In this document: piece by piece, positions 1,991 through 52,457 of the stretch
Layout: the number at the start of each line of letters is the position of its first letter
Position numbering within the stretch: position 1 is the first letter of the stretch
Assembly (NCBI RefSeq): GCF_030684315.1
Contig: NC_081359.1
Span: 22,082,184 to 22,146,183 of the forward strand
Source: Stegostoma tigrinum
Lineage: Eukaryota
Length of the DNA: 64,000 nt
Direction: 5' to 3'
Notes under the pieces: generated by a model
What the model was told of the DNA's origin: nothing
The model's input: the letters and a program-made list of their open reading frames with translations, nothing else
The model's database searches: none
Program-made: the position numbers and the translations under genes

Positions 1991-2292
1991 TGCCTTGTTT
2001 CCCTAATTTTAGACGCAATCAAGTAATTTGAAATCGGCTTAATTTAAATCTTCATTAGTGAGAAATTAATAGGCCTACACAAACAAATATTCGGCATGAT
2101 AAAATAATAAACTTTGTTGGTTTTCTAACCACTTTGTAGTTTGGGTGCTTGTGATAATTCTTTTCAGGTAAGTTTAATTTGCAATGGAATGATTTCTACA
2201 AATTTCTGCAGGTCACTGCTGTGCTTTGCCTTGTACTGGGAAAAAATAAAATTAGAGGCGGTACTGATAGACTAGTAAAAGCTTTCAGTTAC

Positions 2293-5200
2293 CTGTCGGG
2301 TGTGCAATGGGCCCTTTGTCTTGAAGCCTCCTTGGGAGCTACACTCTGAGGCACTGAAGTGGTCTGAACTAGTGGAAGAGCGCTTCGACAGGGTGTCACA
2401 ACCCCCAACGAAGGTGTTGTCCAAAGGGAGCTCCTGAATCACGTGATGCTTTTTCGCAGAAATAGGGGTGTCTGGCTTCAGATGAAAAGAGGGCTGCGGA
2501 GAGCCAGATTTGTAATGCCTCGCTAGGTCTGGGCTGTTGGGCTTAAATGTAGTTGGTGGTGTGCTGCCCCAGTCAAATCGCCCTATCGTTTGCTCCTCCA
2601 GCTCAGCTGGAAGGGTAATGGTTCCATTGATGGGCTCATGGGCAGGGTCATCAGGTTTGGATTCCTCAATAGTGACAAAGTTTAGGAGGGAACTCTTTGG
2701 GGATTTTCTTTTCTTCCTTTTCTTCTTTTTGTTCTGCTTGCACTCCTGATTGGGAGACATCCATTCAGCACCCTGCTTGTTCCTTTGTGTAGTCTTGAAC
2801 CTTGAGGACTGCCGGCACCGCACCAATATTGTAACAAAGATGACCACAATCACTACCATGGCTCCAGCCACTATGGCAATCATTATGGTAAGATAATCCT
2901 CATTTTGCCAGGGCTGGGTGCCATCTCCAATGTTCTTATCTAGTGGAGTCTCCATTGTCCTCCGTATTAACTCATAGACGTAACTAGCATTGTTTACCGT
3001 ATCATTTACATACAAGTAGACAAGCACAAGTGTGTGCAAGGGTTTTGGATAACCTAAATCGCTGATGTTCACGACCAGACGGTGCAAGCCCTGGTCTACG
3101 GTAGTCGGTTTCTCCTCCAAGGTAATATTACCCGTCACAGGGTCAATTCGAAACAAACCCTTGTTATTTCCACTGACAATGCTGTATTTGAGCTCTGCAT
3201 TCATACCTGTATCAACGTCCACAGCAAACACTTCTGCCACCACGGAACCAGGTATAGCAGACAGGGGCACTAATTTGAATGAAGAGTTGGAGGGTGGGTA
3301 GATTACAACGGGACTGTTATCATTGACATCTATGACATTGATAGTGACTTTAGCAATGGAAGTGCGGACTGGTCTCCCCCTGTCCACAGCTTTAACTTCG
3401 AATGTGTAGGAGCTTTGCTGTTCTCTGTCGAATGATACGTTGGACCTTATCACACCACTCAGTGGGTCCAGAATAAAATTTGCATTGTCACCCACAACAG
3501 AAGCCATCACCTCTGCATTGGCCCCTGCATCCAGGTCAGTGACAGTAATCACTCCCACGGTGCTGTACTTTGGCAGGTTCTCGGACACAAAGAACTGGAA
3601 GTGGTTGTGAGTGAATTTGGGGTTATTGTCATTCTCATCCAGCACGGTGACGATCACGGCCGCTTGACTCTGTAGCGGAGGGTTACCGCTGTCCCTGGCA
3701 GTCACGGTGAAAATGTAACGCTCCTGTTCCTCCCGGTCGAAGACCCGGGAGGCGGTCAGGACGCCCGTCTTGCGGTCCAGGTCGAAAAACGAGGCGTTGG
3801 GCCCCAGCTGGTAGACGATCTCTGCGTTCTTGCCGCTGTCGTCGTCCGTGGCACTAACGGTGGTCAGGTAGAGGCCACGGTGGTTGTTCTCGGGCACTGC
3901 CAGCTCGATTACGGGCTGGCTGAAGACCGGGGGGTTGTCATTCTCGTCCTCCAGCTTCACCCTCACCAGGGCGCTCTGGTTGAGGCTGGGTTTGCCCGCG
4001 TCTGATGCCACTATCCTGAAGGAGTACTGGTTGGTGCTCTCGTAGTCCAGGAAGGAGGAGGTTTCCAGCAGGTACTGGTTGTCATACACAGCTTTGAGGT
4101 GGAAGGGCACCTCCTTCTCAATGTAGCACACCACCTTGCCATTGACATCCGTGTCCCTGTCGGAGACGGTGATGAGGGCGATTTTGGTGTTGACCGGGTC
4201 TTTCTCCGAGAGGTGCACAGAGCCATTGACCGGGCTGATGATGTAGCGGATGTCAATCCCGGGCGGGTTGTCGTTCACATCGGTGACATTGACGGTGACG
4301 GTGGCTCGGGCGGGGCTGGAGCTTCCGTCGGTCGCCAGCACGGTCATCTTGTGCAGCGAGACGTCCTCCCGGTCGAGCGGCCGCTGCACGGTGATGAGCC
4401 CGAGGCTCGGGTCCAGGGCGAAGTAGCGGCGGACGGCGGCGGGGGTCTGCGGGCTGAACAGGTAGCGGAGCTCGGCGTTGGAGCCCACGTCGGCGTCGGT
4501 GGCGTGGAGCTGGATGACCGAGGTGCCGAGGGGCGAGTCCTCGGGCAACTGCACCTCGAGCTGGCTCTCCCGGAACACCGGGCGGTTGTCGTTCACGTCG
4601 CTGACGGTGACCTGCAGGATGGCGGTGCTGGATTTCGGGGGTTCCCCGCCGTCTTGCACTTTGATCTTCATCACGTAGGTGTCCTTCTGCTCCCGGTCCA
4701 AGCCCCGTTGGACGATGAGCTGCGGCCACTTCTCGCCCTCGGGGCTCTCCACCACGTCCAAGCCCAGGACGCTCTGCCCGTCTAACAGCTGGTAGCGCTG
4801 CACGCCGTTGGCGCCGGTGTCCGGGTCGCTGGCCGACGGGATGGGGAAGCGGCTGTTGGGCAGCGTGTTCTCCGGGATGGAGATGTTGATGACCGGCGAC
4901 GGGAACATGGGCGCGTTGTCGTTCACGTCCCGCACCACCAGCTTCACCTTGACCAGCCTGAAGTAGTCGTTGGGCAGGATCACCACCTCGATCTCGAACG
5001 AGCACTCGCTCGACCCCGACTCCCCGGCGCACAGCCTCTCCCGGTCGACCCGCTGCGAGCCGGTGTAGATGTCCCCGGTGCCGCTGGAGACCCGCAGCAG
5101 CGGCACCTCGCCCGCCTTGGACACCAGGCGGTAGATGAGGTCGGCGCCGCCGGCCGAGATGTTCAGGTCCCGCGGGATGCTGCCGATCAGGATGTTCTCC

Positions 5201-5304
5201 GGCAGCTCCTCCTGGATGGTGTAGACCAGCTCCTGCGCCAGGGTACAGTCCACCGTCAGGCAGGCGACCAGAGCGAAGAGGAGGTAGAAATCCCGCACGT
5301 CCAT
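2293..5304 (-). CDS. PCDH9: Protocadherin-9 (delta1 protocadherin), large coding exon: signal peptide, 7 cadherin repeats, TM helix, proximal cytoplasmic tail. Downstream exons lie outside the window; unspliced read-through stops at 2272.
   Basis: [12 protein letters not shown]...[14 protein letters not shown], with repeated DRE/DxNDN cadherin motifs, [24 protein letters not shown] and tail [23 protein letters not shown]...KGPLHTRQ, matches PCDH9 as I recall it. True ATG at 5304 (the track's 5325 start is a TTG); donor CAG|GTAACT at 2293/2292. Confidence 0.96.
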
Positions 5305-5310
5305 CACTGC
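3640..5310. promoter_or_regulatory. CpG island covering the 5' half of the PCDH9 coding exon
   Basis: Very high GC and CpG density by eye, against AT-rich, CpG-depleted flanks. Confidence 0.8.
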
Positions 5311-5518
5311 ACCAGCAAGAAACAAGGGATACCACTTCCCAAGCTTTGGTCACACAACCCAGACTTCAACCTGCACTACTCTCCTCAATAACAATTCCTT
5401 TTTTTAAAAAAAAGCAGCCCTGTATCTCTCTAGCGTTGCTGGAAAACCAGCACAAAATTGAACACTATTGAACATCCATCGATGTTGCAAGTTTCTTGGC
5501 TTGTTTTTTCTTGTATTT
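5305..5518 (-). other. PCDH9: 5'UTR part of the PCDH9 coding exon, with predicted splice acceptor at 5519-5520
   Basis: Minus strand reads ctgcctgctcttccctctctctgtgcAG|aaatac: polypyrimidine tract plus CAG. Confidence 0.55.
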
Positions 5519-8559: not shown

Positions 8560-10113
8560 AGCTTATGTTTAATAGCAGCCTGTCTAATCGCAGACTTCGC
8601 CTTTACGCTGTCCACTCGCACTTCGAGACGGCCATGCACTTAAAGCTAAGGATATATATATTTTAAAAAGGGAACCGTGCAATATTTGCGCTTTGCCGCA
8701 TTCCACTACAATGTCCTTTGAAATCAACACTGTCGATACCTTCATATACGTTTCTGATTAACCAAAGGCAGTGCACAAACTTGTTCAAGTGTACCTTTTA
8801 TTTAACAAATGCATTTATCCGCATGAGCTTTTGTCCATACTACGAAGACAGACTATTCTAACGTTCAATAAGGTTATGGTTAATATTTGGCATCATGTCG
8901 ACTTTCAAACCTGCACCCTACATCCTTCCATTTACCAAATTCAAAAGTTTGTCAATCTTGGCTCTGAACATGATCGGGGACTGAATATTCATGGACGAGG
9001 GAGAAAATTCCAAAGATTCAAGATGGTCTGATATTCTACATTATCCCGAGGTTCCAGACTCTCCAGCTAGAGGAGACATTCTCTCAGCGCCGAGAATTGT
9101 AACATTTATGGAAAGTGGATACCTAACAGCAACAAATAATACAGTGCAAGTATAATAATAGTCCAGAACAATAGTTCTACAAACCAAATGCAACAGTAAT
9201 ACAGAATTAAAAAGAAAACGTTGTTAAAGTGAAGAACAAAAGATATAGAAGTTAATGTTTCATGAAGATGACATTTCGGAGGAACTGGTTTCGGCCCACA
9301 TGTGTTAAACATGAGAAGAGAAACTGAAAACAATGAAGATGATAACGCAAAAAGGACAAAGGGAAATCCGATTGGAGAGTAAAGCAAGATGGGCATTCTG
9401 AAATAGAAGTGAACTAAGCAAGAACAAACAACATGCTCCCGTTTTTCAAGGAGCATTTCTCGTGAACACAAATTCAGTTTTTCCAAATATATTTAAGTTT
9501 TTTTACAACAAAATCAATTTGTATAGCACTCTGAATATGGTAAACCCCAAGACAGCTGACAGGAGTACTAGCAAATAAAACTTGACAGCTTGTCAGAATA
9601 GGAATGTTAGAAGGAGTGACCTAATGCTTGGTCAAACTGATATGTGCCTTAAATAAGGAAGGAGCGGGGAAAAGGTGAAAGGGCAGAAGTTTGGAATTAT
9701 AGGAAGAAGACTTGAGGGTTGAGGCTTAACCGCCCGTGATTAAAATCCAGCTGCGCAAGAAGATGTAATTAGCCAGAATCCCGGCGGGCTATTGGCTGGA
9801 CTAGATCTAGGCAACAGGAAAGATTGGCTGGGAAGGGTTACTGCTTTGGATTTATAGCAGTCTACATACTTATGGGCAGAAACCTATATTTTATTTTGTA
9901 TGATGGTTTCTCTGAATGGGTTCTGGTAAAGTACCTTGCTCTTATTAACTGCTCATGTCACCAAGCTGCCTCTGAAAATAAAATAGCAAATTTTCAACCA
10001 GGAATAAATTATAGGGGTGCATGGATTTTTGGGTACTTTTCTGTTTGAGAAATTCCCAAATGAATCTTTGAAATAGTACTCAAGTCAGATACTGACCTGA
10101 AATTGTAATCATA

Positions 10114-10314
10114 GATAATGGGAACTGCAGATGCTGGAGAATCCAAGATAACAATGTGTGGAGCTGGATGAACACAGCAGGCCAAGCAGCATCTCAGGAG
10201 CACAAAAGCTGACGTTTCGGGCCTAGCCGCTTCACCTAGGCCTGAAAATCAGCTTTTGTGCTCCTGAGATGCTGCCTGGCCTGCTGTGTTCATCCAGCTC
10301 CACACTTTGTTATC
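10114..10314. mobile_element. Palindromic Penelope-derived mini-element (family A), HHR cores disrupted at the centre
   Basis: Inverted arms 10147-10225 and ~10236-10314, plus a 33-nt one-sided extension (10114-10146); same sequence as the copies at 16.0, 25.7, 48.6 and 52.0 kb. Confidence 0.75.
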
Positions 10315-11789: not shown

Positions 11790-11885
11790 TCTGAGGAAGG
11801 GTCGCTGGACCCGAAACATTAACTCTGTTTTCTCCTCCACAGATCCTGCCGGACCTGCTGAGCTTTTCCAGCAACTTTATTTTTG
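11790..11885 (+). mobile_element. Penelope-type pLTR fragment (family B) with minimal hammerhead motif
   Basis: CTGAGGA-A-GGGTC-gctg-GACCC-GAAA-CATT at 11791-11820; flanked by ATCCTGGT duplication (11782-11789 / 11886-11893). Confidence 0.7.
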
Positions 11886-15960: not shown

Positions 15961-16035
15961 TAGAGTCAAATCCACAATGTGGAAGGAATTGAACAAATAA
16001 CTTTGTGAACAAAAGCTAACACATTTGATTACAAT

Positions 16036-16131
16036 GAGATAACAAAGTGTGAAGCTGGATGAACACAGCAGGCTAAGCAGCATCTTAGGAGCTCAAAAGC
16101 TGACATTTCGGGCCTAGACCCTTCATCAGAA
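16036..16131 (-). mobile_element. Family A mini-element, single arm, with minimal hammerhead
   Basis: Minus strand CTGATGA-A-GGGT-ctag-GCCC-GAAA-TGTC (16129->16102); 14-bp duplication ACATTTGATTACAA at 16021-16034 / 16146-16159. Confidence 0.75.
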
Positions 16132-16294
16132 AATGTATCTCTGATACATTTGATTACAACAATGATTTGTGTTTATAAAATACTTTTTTACACAACAAAA
16201 TGTCCCAATGTGTCTAATGCCTGCCTTATTTAACAACATTTGACTTTGAGCCAAATAAGGAGAAAGCAGACCTATCAATCAACAGTTTCACAGA

Positions 16295-24934: not shown

Positions 24935-25197
24935 TAGCATAGAATGCACAGAATTTTACAGTTTGGAAAGAACTCCTTCAGTCCATCGTGTCTGCACTGG
25001 CTATTAAACATTGTATGGCACTTCAAGTGATTATCCAATTACTTCTTAAAAGTTGTGATGGTTTTGCCTCTACCTCCTTTCAGGCAGTGAGTTCCAAATA
25101 CCTACCCATCTCTGAATGAAAAGAATTCTTATGTAATTCCTTTGAAACCTCCTGTCCTTTATTTTACGTTTATGCCTCCAGGTTATTGATCCCTGTA
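24935..25197 (-). mobile_element. CR1 LINE 3' fragment
   Basis: Minus-strand translation ...FIQRWVGIWNSLPER is the CR1 ORF2 C-terminus. Confidence 0.6.
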
Positions 25198-25198
25198 T

Positions 25199-25497
25199 GG
25201 TTGGACAGTGAGCTGGTTCATTGTTTTGCAGACGTTTCATTACCCTGCTGGGTAACATCATCAGTGCAGCCTCCGATGAAGTGCTGTTGTGTGTTCCCGC
25301 CTGATATTTAAACTCTGGTGTCCGTCGAGCTGGATTACCTCAAATCCGGTTTTCCTTTGCAGTGGAGTATATATCGGGTCAAGCTATATGTGTTTGTTGA
25401 TGGCCTTCTTAGTGGAGAGCCAGGCCTCTAGGAATTCCCGTACTTGTCTCTGCTTGGTCTGACCCAGGATCCTGGTGTTCTCCCAATCAAACTTACC
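25199..25497 (-). mobile_element. Penelope-like 3' fragment (endonuclease C-terminus + pLTR)
   Basis: KFDWENTRILGQTKQRQVREFLEAW...INKHI aligns with HFDWDNTPILGQAKQRHMREFLEAW at ~39.85 kb. Confidence 0.8.
25227..25268 (-). ncRNA. Minimal type I hammerhead ribozyme, core intact
   Basis: TGCA-CTGATGA-T-GTTACCC-agca-GGGTAAT-GAAA-CGTC-TGCA: both core boxes, 7-bp stem II, 4-bp stem I, GUC triplet. Confidence 0.75.
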
Positions 25498-25723
25498 GGT
25501 TGCTAATAAGCAGATTAGAAGGATTTGCAGGTTGATCATGTACATTTTGCACTGTGTGATGAATGCATCTTCAATGGTCATCACTCCTGGGTTGGGTTCA
25601 ATCCTGGAACTTTTGATTCAGAAGTACAAATTCTATATGCATCACAAGACCTCTCATTCAAAGGCAGGGTTTAATCAAATATTCAAGAAGTATCTGGTAC
25701 AAAATAGAATGATTACATTTACA

Positions 25724-25932
25724 GAGATAGTAGGAACTGCCGATGCTAGAGAATCTGAGATAACATGGTGTGAAGCTGGATGAACACAGCAGGCCAAGCA
25801 GCATCAGAGGAACAGGAGAGTTTGATGTTTTGGGTCGAGACCCTTCTTCAGAAAGGGGGGTCTTTCTGAAGAAAGGTCTCAACCCAAAACGTCAAACTTT
25901 CCTGCTCCTTTGATGCTGCTTGGCCTGCTGTG
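25724..25932. mobile_element. Family A palindromic mini-element with back-to-back decayed hammerheads
   Basis: CTGAAGA...CCC-AAAA-C(G/A)TC on both strands around 25851-25864; TGATTA(C/A)ATTTAC duplication at 25710-25722 / 25931-25943. Confidence 0.75.
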
Positions 25933-33185: not shown

Positions 33186-33646
33186 AGGCAAATAATGTGT
33201 TAATCTCGCATGAAACTATGACAAAACGCTTGTTCAACAAATCTGCTAACTATACGTGGAAAGAATGCCATTGAGTTTTGAGAAGATTTGTAGCTCAGGT
33301 TGAGGTTCTGGATGTGAGTTTGCTTGCTGAGCTGGAAGGTTAGTTTTCAGACGTTTCATCACCATTTTTTTTTATTTGAAAAAATATACTTTATTCATAA
33401 GATGTACAAAAAAAACCATATTTATACACCTACCCAGTCATGCAAGCCGCTCCGGGTTACCCAGGGGTATGTACACCAACTAAAGGGAAAAAAACAAACA
33501 AAGAAGAAAAAAAAAACAAAGCAAAGAAAATACCCCGGCAGTCGTCATCCCGCACAGTCCCAGTTGGCCCCCTGACCAGTTGGGGAAGGCGTCAGCTGGG
33601 CCCAGTTACCAGATAGGGCCCTTTATTCTATTCTGGATGAGGGGTT

Positions 33647-36600
33647 TCATACCGTGGTCTTTCCCCACCGTGCCTTGGCGGCGGCTGCCCCAAGCTTTAG
33701 CGCGTCCCTCAGCACGTAGTCCTGGACCTTGGACTGCGCCAGTCTGCAACACTCGGTCGGGGTCAGTTCTTTCAGCTGGCAGACCAGCAAGTTGCGGGCA
33801 GACCAAAGAGCATCTTTCACCGCATTGATGGTCCTCCAGGCGCAGTTGATATTGGTCTCAGTATGCGTCCCGGGAAACAGCCCGTAGAGCACGGAGTCCC
33901 GCGTCACGGAGCTGCTCGGGACGAACCTCGACCAATACCACTGCATCCCCCTCCAGACCTCCTGCGCATAGGAACACTCCCGAAGGAGGTGATCGACAGT
34001 CTCGTCCCCTCCGCAGCCGCCTCAAGGGCAGCGTGCGGTGGCGCAGAGATTCCGGGCATGCATAAAGGATCTCACTGGCAGAGCCCCCTCACCGCCAGCC
34101 AAGCAATGTCCTTGTGCTTGTTTGAAAGTTCTGGCAATGAGGCATTCTGCCAAACGACTTTGGCAGTCTGCGTGGGGAAGCACACGACGGGATCCACCCT
34201 CTCCTTTTCCCGAAGGGTCTCGAGGATACTACGTGCTAACCACTGCCTGACGGCCTTGTGGTCAAAGGTGTTTCTTTTCAAAAATTTCTCCACAAAGGAC
34301 AGGTGGTACAGGACGGTCCAACTACTCAGAGCGTTCCGCAGCAACGAGGCCAGGCCCATCCTTCGCAACACCGGGGACAGGTAGAACCTCAGTAAGTAGC
34401 GACACTTGGAGTTTGCGTACTGAGGATCTACGCACAGCTTGATGCGGCCGCACACAAAGGTAGCCGTCAGGGCAAGGGTGGCGTTCGGTACGCCCTTTCC
34501 CACATTTTACAGGTCTTTGTACATGGTGTCTCTGTGGACCCGGTCCATCCTCGACCCCCAAATGAAGTGGAAGATGGCCCGGGTGACCGCAGCAGCGCAG
34601 GTGCAGGGAATAGACCAGGCCTGTGCCACATACAACAGTACCGAAAGCCCCTCGCACCTGACAACCAGGTTCTTACCCACGATGGAGAGGGACCGGAGCA
34701 TCCACCTGCCCAGCATCTGCTTCAGTTTGGTGAAATGCTCCTCCGAAGTCTTAGTGCACGCCCCAGCTCCACCGAACCAAACACCCAGCACATTCAGGTA
34801 GTCTGTCCAGACGGTAAAGGGGATGAAGGAGCGGTCGTTCCAGTTCCCGAAGAACATGACCTCGCTCTTACCCCTATTGACTTTGGCACCCGAGGCCAGT
34901 TCAAACTGGCCGCAGATGTCCAACAGCCTACTCACCGACCGACGATCGGTCCAGAAGACGGCGACATCGTCCATGTACAGGGAGGTCTTGACCTGAAGGC
35001 CTCCTCTGGCAAGGCAGGAGTCCACCCACCTGTCCTGCACATAGCCGATCGTATCCCTGATAAGCGCGAGGCTCTCAGCGATCTTCCTGACCGGCACAGC
35101 ACAGGTTTGGTCAGGGTGAATCACCGACTCCAGGGCAGACCTGACCCGGTTGGCTATGTCCTTGGCCACGATTTTGTAGTCCACGTTCAATAGTGAAATG
35201 GGACGCCAATTCTTAATTTCTTCCCTCTCCCCCTTCCTCTTGTAAATGAGGGTGATGATGCCCTTCCTCATGGACTTGCACATTTCCCCTGCCCGAAGCG
35301 CACTATCGTACACCTCCAGCAGGTCCTGGCCGACCAGGTCGCACAGAGCTGAATACAGCACGACCGGTAAGCCGTCGCTCCCGGGAGTCTTACTCCTCTC
35401 CACGGACTTGAGGGATCTGGTCAGCTCGTCCAGGGATATCGGCCGGTCCAGCCACTCCCTCATGCCATCGTCTAAGACCACCGTGATAGACAACAGGAAC
35501 GACTCGGAGGCCGTGCTGTCCGTGGGCTTCGTGTCGTACAGTCCGGCATAAAGGATCTGCTGATCCTCAAAATGTCGGGCCGAGACGACGTCACCGAGCC
35601 GTTGTCCTCCTTCAGCCAGCTAAGCACAGAGCTCTCTTTGTGCACCTTCTGAAAGAAGAAACGCGAGCACGTCTCGTCCTGCTCCACGGACCAGAAGATT
35701 ATCCTGGAGGCCTCCGCGGCGAAGAGCGAGGCTTGCTGGCCCCTCACCTCGCGGAGGACCTCCGTGACATCGACTCCCATCAACTGCAGAAGGAGCAGGT
35801 TCGGCACCCTTTTCTGGAGTCGTGACAGCTTTCCCTGCCTCTCTCTCGCCTTCTGAACACGCTTGAGGACAAAGAACCTCTTGATGTTCTCCTTCACCGT
35901 CTCCCACCAGTCGCCTGGAGACTCAAAGAGGGGTTTCACGGTTCTCCAACCGGCGTACTCCCTCTTAAGCTCTTTGACGTTCTCTGGGGTCAACAGAGTC
36001 GTGTTGAGCTTCCACGTCCCCTTGCCGGCCGGCTGGTCGTCCTGTAAGTGACAGTCGGCCAGCAGGAGGCAGTGGTCAGAGAAGAATACCGGCTCGACAC
36101 CTGACCGAGAACGCCCGTGACACAAACAGGAAGTCTATCCTTGAACGAATAGACCCGTCTGGCCGTGACCAGACGCTGTGCTCTGTCTGCAGGGGTGCTG
36201 ACGACGTCGAGCAGCTTGGCGTCCTTCACCGTGACCATCAAGAATCTGGACGTGATGTCCAGTTGACTCCCCCCACCCGCTGTCCCCACGCCGGATCTTC
36301 CATCTGCATCGATGCTGCAGTTGAAGTCCCCGTCTAGGATGATCGGCCTGGACGTAGCCAGCACGGGTGGAAGCCGCTGCAGGACGGCCAACCGCTCACT
36401 CCGTACCGTTGGGGTGTACACCTTGATCAGCCTCAGGGGAGCGTTCCTGTAGGTGATGTCAGCCACTAGGAGGCGCCCCCCCCCAACACCTCCTGAACTT
36501 GAGAGATGGTGAAGTTGCGCTCCTGCAGCAGAATAGCCAGGCCAGAGGAGCGACAGTCGTTACCCCCCGACCAGAACGAAGGCCCATAGGTCCAGGCGCC

Positions 36601-36753
36601 GGACCATTTTCCATACCTGCCGAGGTGCGGTATCCCGCACTCCTGCAGAAACAGGAGGCCCACCTTGATGGTGGTCAGGTAGGCCAATGCGGACACACAT
36701 CTTGTGGTTGACTTGACACTGCGCACATTAATGCTCGCAACTCGTACCCCCAT
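33647..36753 (-). pseudogene. Tx1 ORF2 (APE endonuclease + reverse transcriptase), with frameshifts and an internal RT deletion
   Basis: MGVRVASINVRS..LFLQE, GDFNC, SDHC (APE); KTPGSDGLP, NWRPISLLNVDYKI, YMDD (RT); ends ARWGKTTV*. Confidence 0.9.
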
Positions 36754-38191
36754 TGTGGGCAGTGACCGCAGTACCCTCCCCAAGTCCAAGGTCCAGCCCC
36801 TCTATCTGTCCCTTCATGCCCATTGCTCCGGCTAACTGCTGGACGCTCTCCGGGCTCAGGAAACCATCTGTGCTGCCTTCCGGGTGGCATCCCCCCGTCG
36901 GGGGTACGGAGGCAGGAGAGTCCGGCTCTGGGTCAGGCTGGGGACGGGCTGCTTCCTCCTTCCCGCCTGGAAGTTCCGGGGGACCCTCCAGGGCCCCAGC
37001 GGCACGTGTCTGGGTGCCGTAAGAGGCCTCAGGATGCCTCCCGTCACCTGGAAGCGGGGTGCTGCTTTCCTTCTCCCTTGAGATCTTTAGCTTCTGCTCT
37101 GGGCGGGCCCCCTTCGTGTCTCCCTCGTCATAGGAGCTCTTATATCCCCCCTGTAGCTCCCTCTTCCTGCCTGATGGTTGCGGTTCCTGGACCCGCCGAC
37201 GCACCTTCCTCCTTGCTTTCCGGACCGTCGTCCACTCCCCTGGGTCGCCTGTTGCCGCCTCCATCGACTCCGGGTTGTCGGGGGGGGAGCGGAGCCTGGA
37301 GGGGTGCTTTGCTGGCCTCGGGCCCATCCTGCGGGGCTGGGCCCTCCTGCACAACCTGGCCCTCCTGCACATTAGTGGGGCCCCTGCAGGGCCCTGGTGC
37401 CTTCCTCTCCTCCGGGGGGGCTGGTCCCGCATTGCCCCTGCCGGCGACCTGGGCGTAGGTGGTCCCCCGCCGCAGGCATGCCCTCTCGAGGTGGCCCGCT
37501 TCCCCGCAAATGTTGCAGCTTTTTTTTGTGGGCAATCGTTTGCAAGGTGACCCTCCTCCCTGCAGTTCCTACAGATGGTGGCTTTGCAGTCGGCTGCCAC
37601 GTGACCTGACCTACCACAGGCGTGGCAGACTTTAGGTTGCCCTGCGTAGGTCAGGTAGCCCTTGCTCCCGCCGATCGCAAAGCTGGACGGTGGGTGTACA
37701 ATGTTCCCGTCCGCGCCCATCCTCAGCATCACCTTGACCTGCCTCTTACTGGTCCAGATGCCAAAGGGGTCCATGATGTCAATTAGGGCCCCTTCCACCT
37801 TCACGTGCCTTCCCACGAAGGTCAGGACATCAACTGCTGGCACATGCGGGTTGTACATGTGTACAGTCACCATACGGCTCCTCTGCGCTGGCATCACAAA
37901 CAGCTGGACAGCGGTCATTACAGAGACGGGGCCCTCACCTCCTTTCTCCTTAAAAACCTCCAGGAAGCACTCACAAAGCTTGGCATTCCTGAAGGTTGCA
38001 TCGTAAAAACCTCCTCTGGGGAAATCCTGCAGGCAGTAAATGTCCGCAGCAGCAAACCCACAACAGTCCAACAGGACCCTCTTCACGAAGAAGGTGCGGT
38101 CCACAGGTGCACCTTCATCCACCTTCTTCACGGAGACACAGATGGTGTTCCGGACCCCCTGACCTGGGGCACGAGTACTTGCTGCAGCCAT
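36728..38191 (-). pseudogene. Tx1 ORF1 (zinc-knuckle nucleic-acid-binding protein), frameshifted
   Basis: CHACGRSGHVAADC and CRNCREEGHLANDC in one frame; third knuckle CNICGEAGHLERAC in another frame after the T8 run at 37520-37527. Confidence 0.85.
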
Positions 38192-38373
38192 CGTTGCAGG
38201 TTGATGCTCCCCTGAGCCAGCGTTAGGCCGAAGCCAGCATTAAGATCCACCAGTTGCAAGGGTGCACAGCCAACCCGATGTCTTCCTTCCACCTCCAACA
38301 CAGCGCTTTCCTCCTCCCGGTCCACAGAAGAGTGGGTCTTTACTTTGTTCCACATGTAGGCTGGTTCACTGAG

Positions 38374-38434
38374 CTGGAAGGTTTGTTCCCAGATGTTTCG
38401 TCACCATTCTAGGTAACATCAACAGTGAGCCTCC
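38374..38434 (-). ncRNA. Composite hammerhead at the PLE/Tx1 5' junction (core now mutated)
   Basis: GGAGGCTCA-CTGTTGA-T-GTTACC-tagaat-GGTGAC-GAAA-CATC-TGGGAACAAACCTTCC; CUGAUGA is mutated to CUGUUGA and GUC to AUC. Confidence 0.65.
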
Positions 38435-38579
38435 GACAAAGTGCTGGTGTTATGTCCCGCATTCTATTTATCTGGTTAGGTTTCCTTGGGTTGGTGATGT
38501 CATTTCCGGCATCGGTGATGTCATTTCCTGTTTCTTTTTCTCAGAGGATGATAGATTGGCTCCAAATCAATGTGTTTGT

Positions 38580-39245
38580 TGATGGAGTTCCAGTTGGAAT
38601 GCCATGCTTCAAGGAATTCTCGCATGTGTCTCTATTTGGCTTGTCCTAGGATGGATGTGTTGTCCCAATCAAAGTGGTGTCCTTCCTCATCTGTATGTAA
38701 GGATACTAGTGATAGTGGGTCATGTCGTTTTGAGGCTAGTTGATGTTCATGTATCCTGGTGGCTAGCTTTCTGCCTGTTTGTCCAATGTAGTGTTTGTCA
38801 CAGTTCTTGCAAGGTATTTTGTAGATGACGTTCGTTTTGCTTGTTGTCTGTATCAGGTCTTTTAAGTTCATTGGCTGCTGTTTTAGTGTGTTGGTAGGTT
38901 TGTGGGCTACCCTGATGCCAAGAGGTCCGAGTAGTCTGGCAGTTATTTCGGAAATGTCTTTGATGTAGGGGAGAGTGGTTATGGTTTCTGGGCCCGTTTT
39001 GTCTGTTTGTTTGGGTTTGTTGCTGAGAAATCGGCGGACTGTGTTCATTGGGTACCCGTTCTTTTTGAATACGCTGTATAGGTGATTTTCTTCTGCTCTG
39101 CGTAGTTCCTCTGTGCTGCAGTGTGTGGTGGCTCATTGGAATAATGTTCTAACGCAGCTTCGTTTGTGGGTGTTGGGATGGTCGCTCCTGTAGTTCAGTA
39201 TTTGGTCCGTATGTGTTATTTTCCTGTCGATGCTGGTTTGAAGTT
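38580..39245 (-). pseudogene. PLE RT C-terminus / GIY-YIG endonuclease fragment, left arm
   Basis: NVIYKIPCKNCDKHYIGQTGRKLATRIHEH; internal stops. Confidence 0.85.
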
Positions 39246-39259
39246 TGTGGGGAATGGGG

Positions 39260-39990
39260 AACTTCAAACCAGCGTCTATAGGAAACCAACACATATGGAC
39301 CAAACACTGAACTACAGGAGCGACCATCCCAACACCCACAAACGAAGCTGCGTTAGAACATTATTCCAATGAGCCACCACACACTGCAGCACAGAGGAAC
39401 TACGCAGAGCAGAAGAAAATCACCTATACAGCGTATTCAAAAAGAACGGGTACCCAATGAACACAGTCCGCCGATTTCTCAGCAACAAACCCAAACAAAC
39501 AGACAAAACGGGCCCAGAAACCATAACCACTCTCCCCTACATCAAAGACATTTCCGAAATAACTGCCAGACTACTCGGACCTCTTGGCATCAGGGTAGCC
39601 CACAAACCCACCAACACACTAAAACAGCAGCTAATGAACTTAAAAGACCCTATACAGAGAACAAGCAAAACGAAAATCATCTACAAAATACCTTGCAAGA
39701 ACTGTGACAAACACTACATTGGACAAACAGGCAGAAAGCTCGCCACCAGGATACATGAACATCAACTAGCCTCAAAACGACATGACCCACTATCACTAGT
39801 ATTCTTACATACAGATGAGAAAGGACACCACTTTGATTGGGACAACACACCCATCCTAGGACAAGCCAAACAGAGACACATGCGAGAATTCCTAGAAGCA
39901 TGGCATTCCAACCGGAACTCCATCAACAATCACATTGGCTCCAAATCAGTCTACCATCCTCTGAGAAAAAGAACAAGAAATGACATCATC
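39260..39990 (+). pseudogene. PLE RT C-terminus / GIY-YIG endonuclease fragment, right arm
   Basis: ELQTSVYRKPTHMDQ...TLFQ*...IIYKIPCKNCDKHYIGQTGR...REFLEAW; 5'-truncated, stop at 39370-39372. Confidence 0.85.
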
Positions 39991-40048
39991 AACCCAAGGA
40001 AACCTAAACAGACAAATAGAAAGCGGGACATAACACCAGCGCTTCATT

Positions 40049-40107
40049 GGAGGCTCACTGATGATGTTACCTCGAATGGTGACGAAATGTCTGAAAACTA
40101 ACCTTCC
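40049..40107 (+). ncRNA. PLE pLTR minimal hammerhead ribozyme (uninterrupted arm)
   Basis: GGAGGCTCA-CTGATGA(40058-64)-T-GTTACC-tcgaat-GGTGAC-GAAA(40084-87)-TGTC-TGAAAACTAACCTTCC. Confidence 0.8.
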
Positions 40108-40189
40108 AGCTCAGCAAACAAACCCACATCCAAAAGAATACTATATTCAACAGGGTCCAGTAGATTAAAAAAAAGTCCTAATGAACTCG

Positions 40190-48625: not shown

Positions 48626-48834
48626 TTAGAGATAGTAGGAACTGCCGATGCTGAAGAATCTGAGGATAACATGGTGTGAAGCTGGATGAACGCAGCAGGT
48701 CAAGCAGCCTCAGAGGAGCAGGAAAGCTTAACGTTTCAGGTAGGGAAGGGTCCCAACCCGAAATGTCAGGTTTTCCTGCTCCTCTGATGCTGCTTGGCCT
48801 GCTGTGTTCATCTAGCTTCACACCGTGTTATATC
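48626..48834. mobile_element. Family A palindromic mini-element inside an old CR1 remnant
   Basis: Inverted arms plus one-sided extension; duplication AGGTTTCAGTTTG at 48612-48624 / 48837-48849. Confidence 0.75.
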
Positions 48835-49446
48835 AGAGGTTTCAGTTTGATTAGATTTGAAAGAAGTAGGTAGAAAAAATGATTCCCTTTTATTGTATGC
48901 TTCATATCTCAGGAATCAATGCAGAGATAACATTAGTTTCTAAATATGTTGCAGGTTTATTTACACAGTTTTAAGATATCTCTGCAATCACAAAATGTCT
49001 GTTCTGACAGCTCAGCTCCTAATAGCTTCTGTAACGTCTGTTTACTTTACCCTGAGTTCGTATCGAGGATTTATCAATCAAGTGTCGTGAACATAGATTG
49101 GTTACTGGACTCACATAATCAACAGAGGACAACAGAAATACTACACATCTGGTGAATGACTTGACAAAAGAAAGTAACAGATAAAAAACAGCTGTTGACA
49201 AAAGGCTGAGAGGTGAAAAGAGGGGAATAAATAACTAATCACTGTTGTAAGGATCTTGAACGCTATCCAAAAAAGTAACGGTAGTTGATTTTATAAATAA
49301 TTCAAAGTGAGAAGGCTAGGTACTTGAGTGTGAGGAATGTACAGAAATGGAGAAGAAGATGTGAGACTAAGCAGGACTGTTCTTTCAGAGAACCAGAACA
49401 CTTGAAATAGAACATCTCTCCTTATTAATAAACAAGCTTCCATGAG

Positions 49447-51989: not shown

Positions 51990-52204
51990 GATGATAGGAA
52001 CTGCAGATGCTGGAGAATCTGAGATAGCAAGGTGTAGAGCTGGATGAACACAACAGGCCAAGCAGCATCAGAGGAGCAGGAAGGCTGATGTTTCGGGCCT
52101 AGACCCTTCTTCTGAAGAAGGATCGAGGCCCGAAATGTCAGCCTTCCTGCTCCTCGATGTTGCATGGCCTGCTGTGTTCATCCAGCTCGACGCCTTGTTA
52201 TCTT
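51990..52204. mobile_element. Family A palindromic mini-element
   Basis: Arms centred on CTTCTTCTGAAGAAG (52105-52119); plus-strand CTGAAGA...GCCCGAAATGTC; TATATTTCTG repeated on both flanks. Confidence 0.75.
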
Positions 52205-52457
52205 ATATTTCTGATAACCTGACGCTGGATAACTACAGGGAATAGCTGTTACTCAAGATGCCGTTGAATTGCTTGTTTACATGGTAGTGGTTGCCCACAC
52301 CTCTGGAGGTAGATTTCCATTGCTTGCCTCTTGCTGCCAACAAATTTGGGGCCAGCCAACTGAGAAGATACCTTGTTATCCAGAGCTCCATTTTAAAAGA
52401 AAACGCAAACCTTTGTTCCTGTGTGCATTTAGTTTTCATTCATTGCCGGGGTGGAAG

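Follow-up and report, generated by a model that had tools for sequence, protein, structure and literature searches.

The question raised by this locus is why a long interspersed nuclear element (LINE) interrupts the hammerhead ribozyme motif of another retroelement. In the window (the whole stretch of 64,000 nucleotides of Stegostoma tigrinum contig NC_081359.1 that was analysed), a 5.0-kb Tx1-type LINE including its target-derived 5' leader (33367-38404, minus strand) sits within the left arm of a palindrome of a Penelope-like element (Penelope). Two 19-mers with two differences (33348-33366 and 38390-38408) flank the LINE, and the right arm carries the uninterrupted site with one CpG change (40075-40093). 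An earlier sequence-only reading of the window had noted the 19-mers, the LINE, and the empty site, which are confirmed, and had proposed that the Penelope hammerhead is the target of the LINE family. Of this proposal, the part that stands is that the Penelope site is the target, whereas recognition of the ribozyme itself is unsupported, as degenerate leaders are reused and no other hammerhead family was struck in the LINE ends examined. We consider it probable (about 0.8) that the at least 2,779 LINE copies at AAT^G^GTGAC (carets mark the two junction positions) were inserted separately by their own endonuclease and target-primed reverse transcription, the 5' end being sealed by pairing between the leader and the target.

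A Fixed Insertion Site in One Penelope Family

The genome was searched with LINE sequence only, which gave 132 distinct 3' ends over all loci; 38 that had been picked by their flanks were set aside, leaving 94 flank-independent ends. All 94 run, in one orientation, from an A6-10 stretch directly into the (G)GTGAC-GAAAC-GTC of one Penelope family. The alignment score was passed by 93 of them, and in the remaining one the target carries a deletion. The 30 best 3' ends, one of which is the window copy, all show a short A-run followed by (G)GTGAC GAAAC GTC, and the first 30 pattern matches on contig C1 were likewise all on target by eye, 21 of them being recovered by a strict regular expression. 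Genome-wide, the family has at least 2,779 exact 3' ends, and the motif GCTCAG lies 28-50 nt downstream of 2,284 of the 2,779 (82%), a share to be compared with 34/40 (85%) in a calibration sample in which every end is on target. The chance that a random insertion falls at this position and strand is approximately 1e-5, and the occurrence of the Penelope site in 94/94 ends, the outcome of the 3'-flank check that the sequence-only reading had called for, therefore identifies this site as the target of the LINE family. The family is strongly target-specific, and targeting of the Penelope site at the family level is confirmed.

The A-run joins the target at two adjacent positions in most copies, namely before GGTG (47 of the 94 ends) or GTG (38), while three ends join TGGTG and six join other bases; the AA^TGGTG join of the window copy belongs to a rare class. 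The insertion had been placed exactly in the catalytic core, but the A-run joins at the border of loop II and stem II, between the core halves. This position is outside the conserved core, 13-14 nt before the GUC cleavage site, and corresponds approximately to codon 5 of the Penelope open reading frame (ORF), whose start lies at stem II. Exact matching across the genome found 15,344 empty sites and 1,824 5' junctions; with site detection rates of 24/39 and 38/76 applied to the empty-site and 5'-junction counts, about 13% of sites are filled, and overall the LINE takes up roughly 11-13% of the sites of the Penelope family. Among the loci examined, no LINE copy was found ahead of a Penelope ORF. 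An A-rich run of 6-10 nt was present in 77 of 78 scored copies, the youngest included, and its length looks as if it were templated by read-through RNA rather than being a poly(A) tail.

A Target-Derived Leader at the 5' End

The flanking 19-mers had been interpreted as a 19-bp target site duplication (TSD) altered by two CpG-type transitions, an interpretation that does not hold. Flank similarity at the window locus extends beyond 19 nt, to approximately 62 nt at 76%, because the LINE carries at its 5' end a diverged version of the Penelope sequence that lies downstream of the site. This leader of approximately 55 nt (GGAACAAACC...TGAACCAGC versus AAAACTAACC...CGAGCAAAC in the target) is found in nearly all full-length copies and is the family's own. 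Its alleles at +15, +16, and +20 were observed in 87, 86, and 83 of 92 filled arms, respectively, and in no more than 2 of the 62 empty arms. At +10, 27 of the elements scored at both ends combine a 5' copy with A and a 3' copy with G, and four show the opposite arrangement (P 3e-5), so that one of the window "transitions" (G>A at this position) is an allele that the family carries in its 5' copy. Owing to the leader homology, the length of a TSD cannot be read from the window locus. In the 16 of 92 arms where the leader allele xGATT starts at +5, the duplicated target can span no more than 5-6 bp.

In the first 40 unselected copies on contig C1, the 5' end is kept in 30, of which 26 lie behind the Penelope upstream half and four behind another LINE; empty Penelope arms have a median of approximately 280 nt upstream. 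The upstream half also differs between filled and empty arms. The hammerhead core base A6 (position -18) is A in 69/69 empty arms, whereas T, giving the A6U change, is present in 51/104 filled arms. Among 34 pairs of an empty and a filled arm (two entries of which re-read one locus), T at -18 occurred on the filled side only in 17 and never on the empty side. With 108 of 134 junctions scored, A6U was found in 18/32, 10/24, 9/19, and 10/25 members of four successive leader subfamilies (40-56%). The restriction of A6U to the filled side and its presence in all four subfamilies indicate that it most likely arrives with the LINE RNA, which, judged from these alleles, would most likely extend upstream of the nick by 18 nt or more, beyond the cleavage site. 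A6U lowers hammerhead cleavage, and an intact hammerhead consensus is found in only 8/104 filled sites versus 43/69 empty sites (P 1e-14). The point at which target alleles give way to leader alleles varies in position within the leader (L037, L047, L053, L201, and L208).

Carry of 100-500 nt of upstream sequence by the LINE RNA, suggested by comparisons of arms, was considered and rejected, as it is unsupported by the flank diversity of young copies; the arm comparisons involved few informative loci with some alignment noise, and a marker at -34, a CpG site, was dropped. No significant special fold of the leader was detected (z = -1.4). At one locus (L168, contig C1:11822617), leader-type alleles are followed by the Penelope end without a LINE, likely a clean LINE loss by recombination between the leader and the 3' flank.

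Separate Insertion or Joint Spread

None of the 19 5'-truncated copies (10/39 in one sample and 9/40 in another, in which one further copy is interrupted) shows the upstream target half at its truncation point, and a classical TSD is consequently never seen. Separate insertion was put to the test for this reason. The 25 young LINE copies compared are 1.2% apart at non-CpG positions, whereas divergence among their upstream flanks is 2.6-6.4% in every one of the seven bins, similar to the 3.3-6.5% among empty arms; young LINEs thus sit in older and diverse Penelope copies. A tree of 69 LINE copies, each having 3,800 or more aligned bases (11 of 80 were dropped), carries no signal for the G or GG junction, the -18 allele, or the Penelope end type (P 0.34, 0.20, and 0.85, respectively). 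A leader variant does track this tree, with 14 changes versus 29.7 after shuffling. The diverse flanks of young LINEs, the unlinked junction types, and the predominance of full-length copies in short arms together favour separate insertion.

The alternative is a composite spread, in which one or a few source copies of Penelope first received the LINE, whereupon the Penelope protein amplified it together with its tail. The truncated copies join inverted arms, which is Penelope-type architecture, and LINE-only palindromes exist (L066, L067, L213/214, L226/227, L228, and L229); the rare variants common to inverted LINE pairs would also be expected, and in the available text on a related element, the Penelope reverse transcriptase (RT) begins downstream of the insertion site (PMC11167929). 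Set against these points, young LINEs have flanks no less diverse than empty arms, neither junction type nor end type follows the LINE tree, and full-length copies predominate despite the shortness of Penelope arms; nor does any 3' flank run on into a shared Penelope ORF. The shared variants are, moreover, patchy, as arm-to-arm conversion predicts, and central deletion explains the LINE-only palindromes. Composite spread is therefore regarded as improbable for the family as a whole, although a minority of copies may have moved by a Penelope-driven route.

Several observations nevertheless weigh against separate insertion as proposed here. Besides lacking the upstream target half, the truncated copies are joined to inverted arms, to internal parts of Penelope, or to other sequence. 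The LINE tree has weak resolution (5/66 branches starred), its youngest clade mostly has the GG junction, and the +20 target allele is borderline on it (P 0.057). Inverted double-filled loci look too frequent, with 13 pairs in the first 100 3' ends in a count by eye; age differences between Penelope copies could cause this excess. The LINEs of inverted pairs often share rare variants in patches, at up to 11 per kb versus 0.12 per kb in random pairs, and arm-to-arm conversion together with central deletion would fit as the source of both these patches and the LINE-only palindromes. Upstream carry past -18 is unsupported, since flank diversity close to the nick is not lowered and only -18 is firm. 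Fewer than 100 nt of Penelope sequence lie upstream in 4/105 filled arms versus 18/71 empty arms, for which the proposed model gives no explanation.

DNA Site or Ribozyme

Whether the hammerhead matters as a ribozyme, as a structure, or only as a stretch of DNA can be judged from the sites that were used. Eight of the 94 LINE copies sit in the degenerate leader of another copy, approximately the share of such sites among exact matches (1,824/17,168). GAAACGTC is kept in two of these eight leader-type insertion sites and absent from six, and later mutation or recombination could have contributed to its loss. None of the 94 ends had struck another hammerhead-bearing Penelope family or the other hammerhead-bearing families of the window. 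The target is best interpreted as a conserved stretch of DNA and not as a functioning ribozyme. In the simplest reading of these sequences, a sequence-specific endonuclease would use a stretch that nearly every Penelope copy keeps and that is held constant by ribozyme and ORF constraints.

Two explanations would give the hammerhead a more direct part. In the one, the hammerhead rebuilt at the 5' junction would cut a co-transcript and thereby make the LINE 5' end, like the hepatitis delta virus (HDV)-like ribozyme of R2. The single orientation of all copies and the rebuilding of a hammerhead-shaped sequence at the junction, the consensus being kept at 8/104 junctions, are what such borrowing would produce, but LINE-specific alleles lie upstream of the cleavage site at -18 and +5 to +10, so that the copied RNA must extend past it. 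The 40-56% share of A6U in each successive leader subfamily and the deficit of intact consensus sequences at filled sites relative to empty ones also count against borrowing, which we consider very unlikely. Equally remote is the idea that the endonuclease or a ribonucleoprotein reads the hammerhead structure, as a stem II DNA hairpin or as RNA in an R-loop, instead of linear DNA. The nick would be at the stem II/loop II border, and the bases around it are alike in leader and target, as such recognition might require; against this, the window contains hammerhead-like cores (16129, 25264, 52112, 11791, and 49449) from families never struck in the 94 ends, and degenerate leaders are reused as sites. 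A junction pattern aimed at an older Penelope family, approximately 68% related, also yielded no LINE of this family within it, since 15 of the 18 loci retrieved were of the main family and three were unrelated.

A further suggestion, which we regard as tentative and rather doubtful, is that the LINE is a hyperparasite selected to keep the host ribozyme dead. On this view, RNA retaining the upstream homology required for a clean 5' join would come only from source copies with A6U or an equivalent break, and such sources would write the hammerhead break into new targets. The suggestion arises because A6U holds at 40-56% through four leader subfamilies, although dilution would be expected were unmutated sources equally fertile.

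Proposed Mechanism of Insertion

For separate insertion, the following course may be proposed from the junction sequences. The endonuclease domain of the apurinic/apyrimidinic endonuclease (APE) type would nick the bottom strand one base to either side of the first G of the site. The RNA, read in from the Penelope pseudo-long terminal repeat (pLTR), would keep at least 18 nt of upstream target, a retention attributed to the mostly broken state of the junction hammerhead. The end of the cDNA could then anneal to the target with a variable switch point, as a result of which A6U would overwrite the target in approximately half of the insertions and target alleles would sometimes persist into the leader. 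The site may owe its use to being more abundant and better conserved than any other part of the Penelope family, and not to RNA cleavage. Every insertion splits the host ribozyme and ORF start and leaves a reusable site ahead of the LINE, which accounts for tandem arrays.

The Penelope Host and Its Hammerhead

The target family has inverted 5'-truncated arms, a pLTR, and two 3' end positions, which are Penelope-like features. A GIY-YIG match was below the cutoff (E 9e-4), and an RT fragment lies upstream in longer arms (RVT_1, E 7e-8, in partial copies). The features of a minimal hammerhead (core, GAAA, UH, and palindrome) are intact in 43/69 empty arms; the unpaired base between 9 and 10.1 and the G10.1-C11.1 pair can be read from the sequences, and stem II folds. 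Rfam gave no match at the gathering score in the window. In the accessible text of the published accounts, metazoan Penelope minimal hammerheads have an unpaired base between 9 and 10.1, the G10.1-C11.1 pair, and a palindromic 15.2-16.2 (PMC4209133), and in Poseidon PAc the ORF starts at stem II (PMC11167929). The shark family shares the unpaired base, the pair, the palindrome, the ORF start at stem II, and the two 3' end positions downstream of the ribozyme with these elements (PMC4209133, PMC11167929). The shark hammerhead is distinct in that it is known from sequence alone and carries a LINE within the motif, of which the accessible parts of these two papers make no mention.

The window also holds the older Penelope end of the approximately 68% related family (25186-25491, minus), which has a minimal hammerhead to itself (stem II GTTACCC/GGGTAAT). 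Another family contributes short palindromic repeats at 10110-10314, 16035-16139, 25723-25932, 48628-48845, and 51990-52209, some with hammerhead-like cores (16129 and 52112), and a further family has such cores at 11791 and 49449.

The LINE Family and Its Relatives

In copy L320 (1671-6530, plus), a single open frame of 1,619 aa spans ORF1 and ORF2, with the Pfam domains RBD_ZCCHC3_1st and 2nd and zf-CCHC in ORF1 and Exo_endo_phos, RVT_1, and zf-RVT in ORF2. This ORF2 thus comprises an APE endonuclease, an RT, and a C-terminal zinc motif without RNase H, as expected for the Tx1 clade. Other young copies, unlike L320, seem to carry ORF2 in a separate frame. The best solved relative of ORF2 is human L1 ORF2p. 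Homologues of ORF1 come from sharks and rays, with 74% identity to a whale-shark protein, which points to a cartilaginous fish as the likely host, and the RT is nearest to unnamed amphibian elements (45-48% in ORF2). In an RT tree of 56 rows, without an L1 outgroup, the LINE is sister to amphibian elements (SH-aLRT 95), within a group (SH-aLRT 92) that also holds the Danio "transposon TX1 uncharacterized 149 kDa protein"; no curated reference with a known target is among the rows. Takifugu BAD04856.1, a putative Keno element, shares 36% identity with ORF2 over 1,121 aa.

The same genome was also examined for a second Tx1 family using a related site, an idea that was rejected: the junction pattern gave 30/30 loci of the same LINE family, and when a 61%-identical shark ORF1 served as protein query, 94 loci were scored and the 30 that were fetched likewise belonged to that family. 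No RNA run was listed with the LINE, which speaks neither for nor against its expression. As regards other species, the 3' junction is spanned by one 151-nt contig (depth 2.7) and one 59-nt contig from a run labelled as another organism, a weak observation. Copies L288 and L289 (contig C41:32050917 and 32075393), 24.5 kb apart, look identical in their printed junctions and alignment ranges and look like a segmental duplication or assembly duplicate. In L088, a (GGGGTC)n expansion takes the place of the LINE 5' untranslated region (UTR).

Layout of the Window Locus

All parts of the interrupted arm lie on the minus strand. The downstream half of the Penelope target (33273-33366), with the 3' half of the hammerhead (GGTGAT GAAA C GTC) and the Penelope 3' terminus (long end), is the same flank as in 94/94 copies. 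It is followed by the A9 run of the LINE 3' end (33365-33373), two A's of which are common to the target, and the LINE body (33367-38346) comprises a unique 5' UTR, ORF1, ORF2, and a 3' UTR with AATAAA. ORF2 (33650-36798), delimited by tblastn with the open copy L320, contains the APE endonuclease, RT, and C-terminal zinc motif; it is frameshifted and has a deletion of approximately 283 bp near 35005, recognised by comparison with other LINE copies. ORF1 (36779-38191), also frameshifted, contains two ZCCHC3-type RNA-binding domains and CCHC knuckles. The family-wide leader, copied from the Penelope sequence downstream of the nick, occupies 38347-38404, and the hammerhead rebuilt at the 5' junction (38387-38429) is degenerate, with a CUGUUGA core (A6U at 38422) and ACAU replacing the palindromic ACGU.

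The upstream target half belongs to the left palindrome arm (38405-39245, minus), which is 5'-truncated and has a putative GIY-YIG end and a pLTR. The right arm (39260-40135, plus; short end) is empty, and its uninterrupted minimal hammerhead (40055-40094, plus) consists of CTGATGA (40058-40064), an unpaired T, stem II GTTACC/GGTGAC, GAAA, and GTC (40089-40091), overlapping the Penelope ORF start (ATG 40060/40063). Repeat comparison places the arms at 38354-39245 and 39260-40135. The two Penelope arms (38409-39245 versus 39260-40083) are identical over approximately 200 nt, from -746 to -546 relative to the nick, and 3-13% different elsewhere, a pattern suggestive of a conversion tract.

The LINE-Penelope locus lies 28 kb upstream of the large first coding exon of a delta-type protocadherin (2272-5349, minus), with six cadherin repeats and a Protocadherin domain. 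A second LINE copy in the window was rejected, as the long ORF concerned is this exon.

Relation to Known Systems and Significance

In the parts of the literature that were available, the targets of Tx1 elements include piggyBac, Mariner, Harbinger, and long terminal repeat (LTR) elements, with Tx1L of Xenopus laevis targeting the piggyBac-type Tx1D, and the crocodilian families are Tx1-Mar, Tx1-9_AMi, Tx1-8_Crp, and Tx1-4_AMi (PMC4494074). The shark LINE resembles these in being a Tx1-type APE LINE whose insertions occupy a fixed position within another transposable element; LTR retrotransposons are the targets of two crocodilian families (PMC4494074). It differs in that its target is Penelope-like, at the hammerhead and ORF start, and in an on-target share near 100%; the target-derived leader with core mutations is not described for Tx1L or the crocodilian families in the accessible text (PMC4494074), from whose main text the word "Penelope" is absent. 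Keno, which targets U2 small nuclear RNA, and Kibi and Koshi, which target microsatellites, are likewise target-specific members of the Tx1 clade (PMC4494074), but with a different target class.

At the 5' end, the closest likeness is to R2. According to the available text, all 5' junctions of earwig R2 carry a duplicated 22-bp copy of the downstream target with three substitutions, and uniform R2 5' junctions are explained by annealing of the cDNA to the target, junction variants being propagated via the RNA (PMC3774820). A substituted duplicate of the downstream target at the 5' junction is thus common to the shark LINE, earwig R2, and R2 elements whose RNA retains upstream 28S sequence (PMC3774820). 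The LINE junction pattern matches the R2 annealing model, that of earwig R2 in particular (PMC3774820). R2 encodes a restriction-like endonuclease and an active HDV-like ribozyme of its own and targets ribosomal DNA (PMC3774820), whereas the shark LINE has an APE-type endonuclease, a duplicate of approximately 55 nt, and a ribozyme that belongs to the host element and is mostly broken.

No report of a Tx1 element in a Penelope element was found in the literature, Repbase reports and subscription papers being outside the search, and "Tx1" is absent from the main text of a bioRxiv retrozyme preprint, as far as that text was available (10.64898/2026.07.22.740005). As far as we found, the Penelope target is previously unreported, whereas Tx1 targeting of DNA transposons and LTR elements has already been published. 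Penelope-like elements are thereby added to the known targets of Tx1 LINEs. The family represents an unusually clean APE-type site-specific system, with thousands of copies, near-100% on target and mostly full length, and with the open copy L320. Its natural record of 5' switch points makes the homology-annealing model of second-strand priming testable outside R2. If the ribozyme-breaking allele is indeed selected, this would bear on whether minimal Penelope hammerheads cut in vivo, and selection for a dead ribozyme would constitute genomic evidence that they do.

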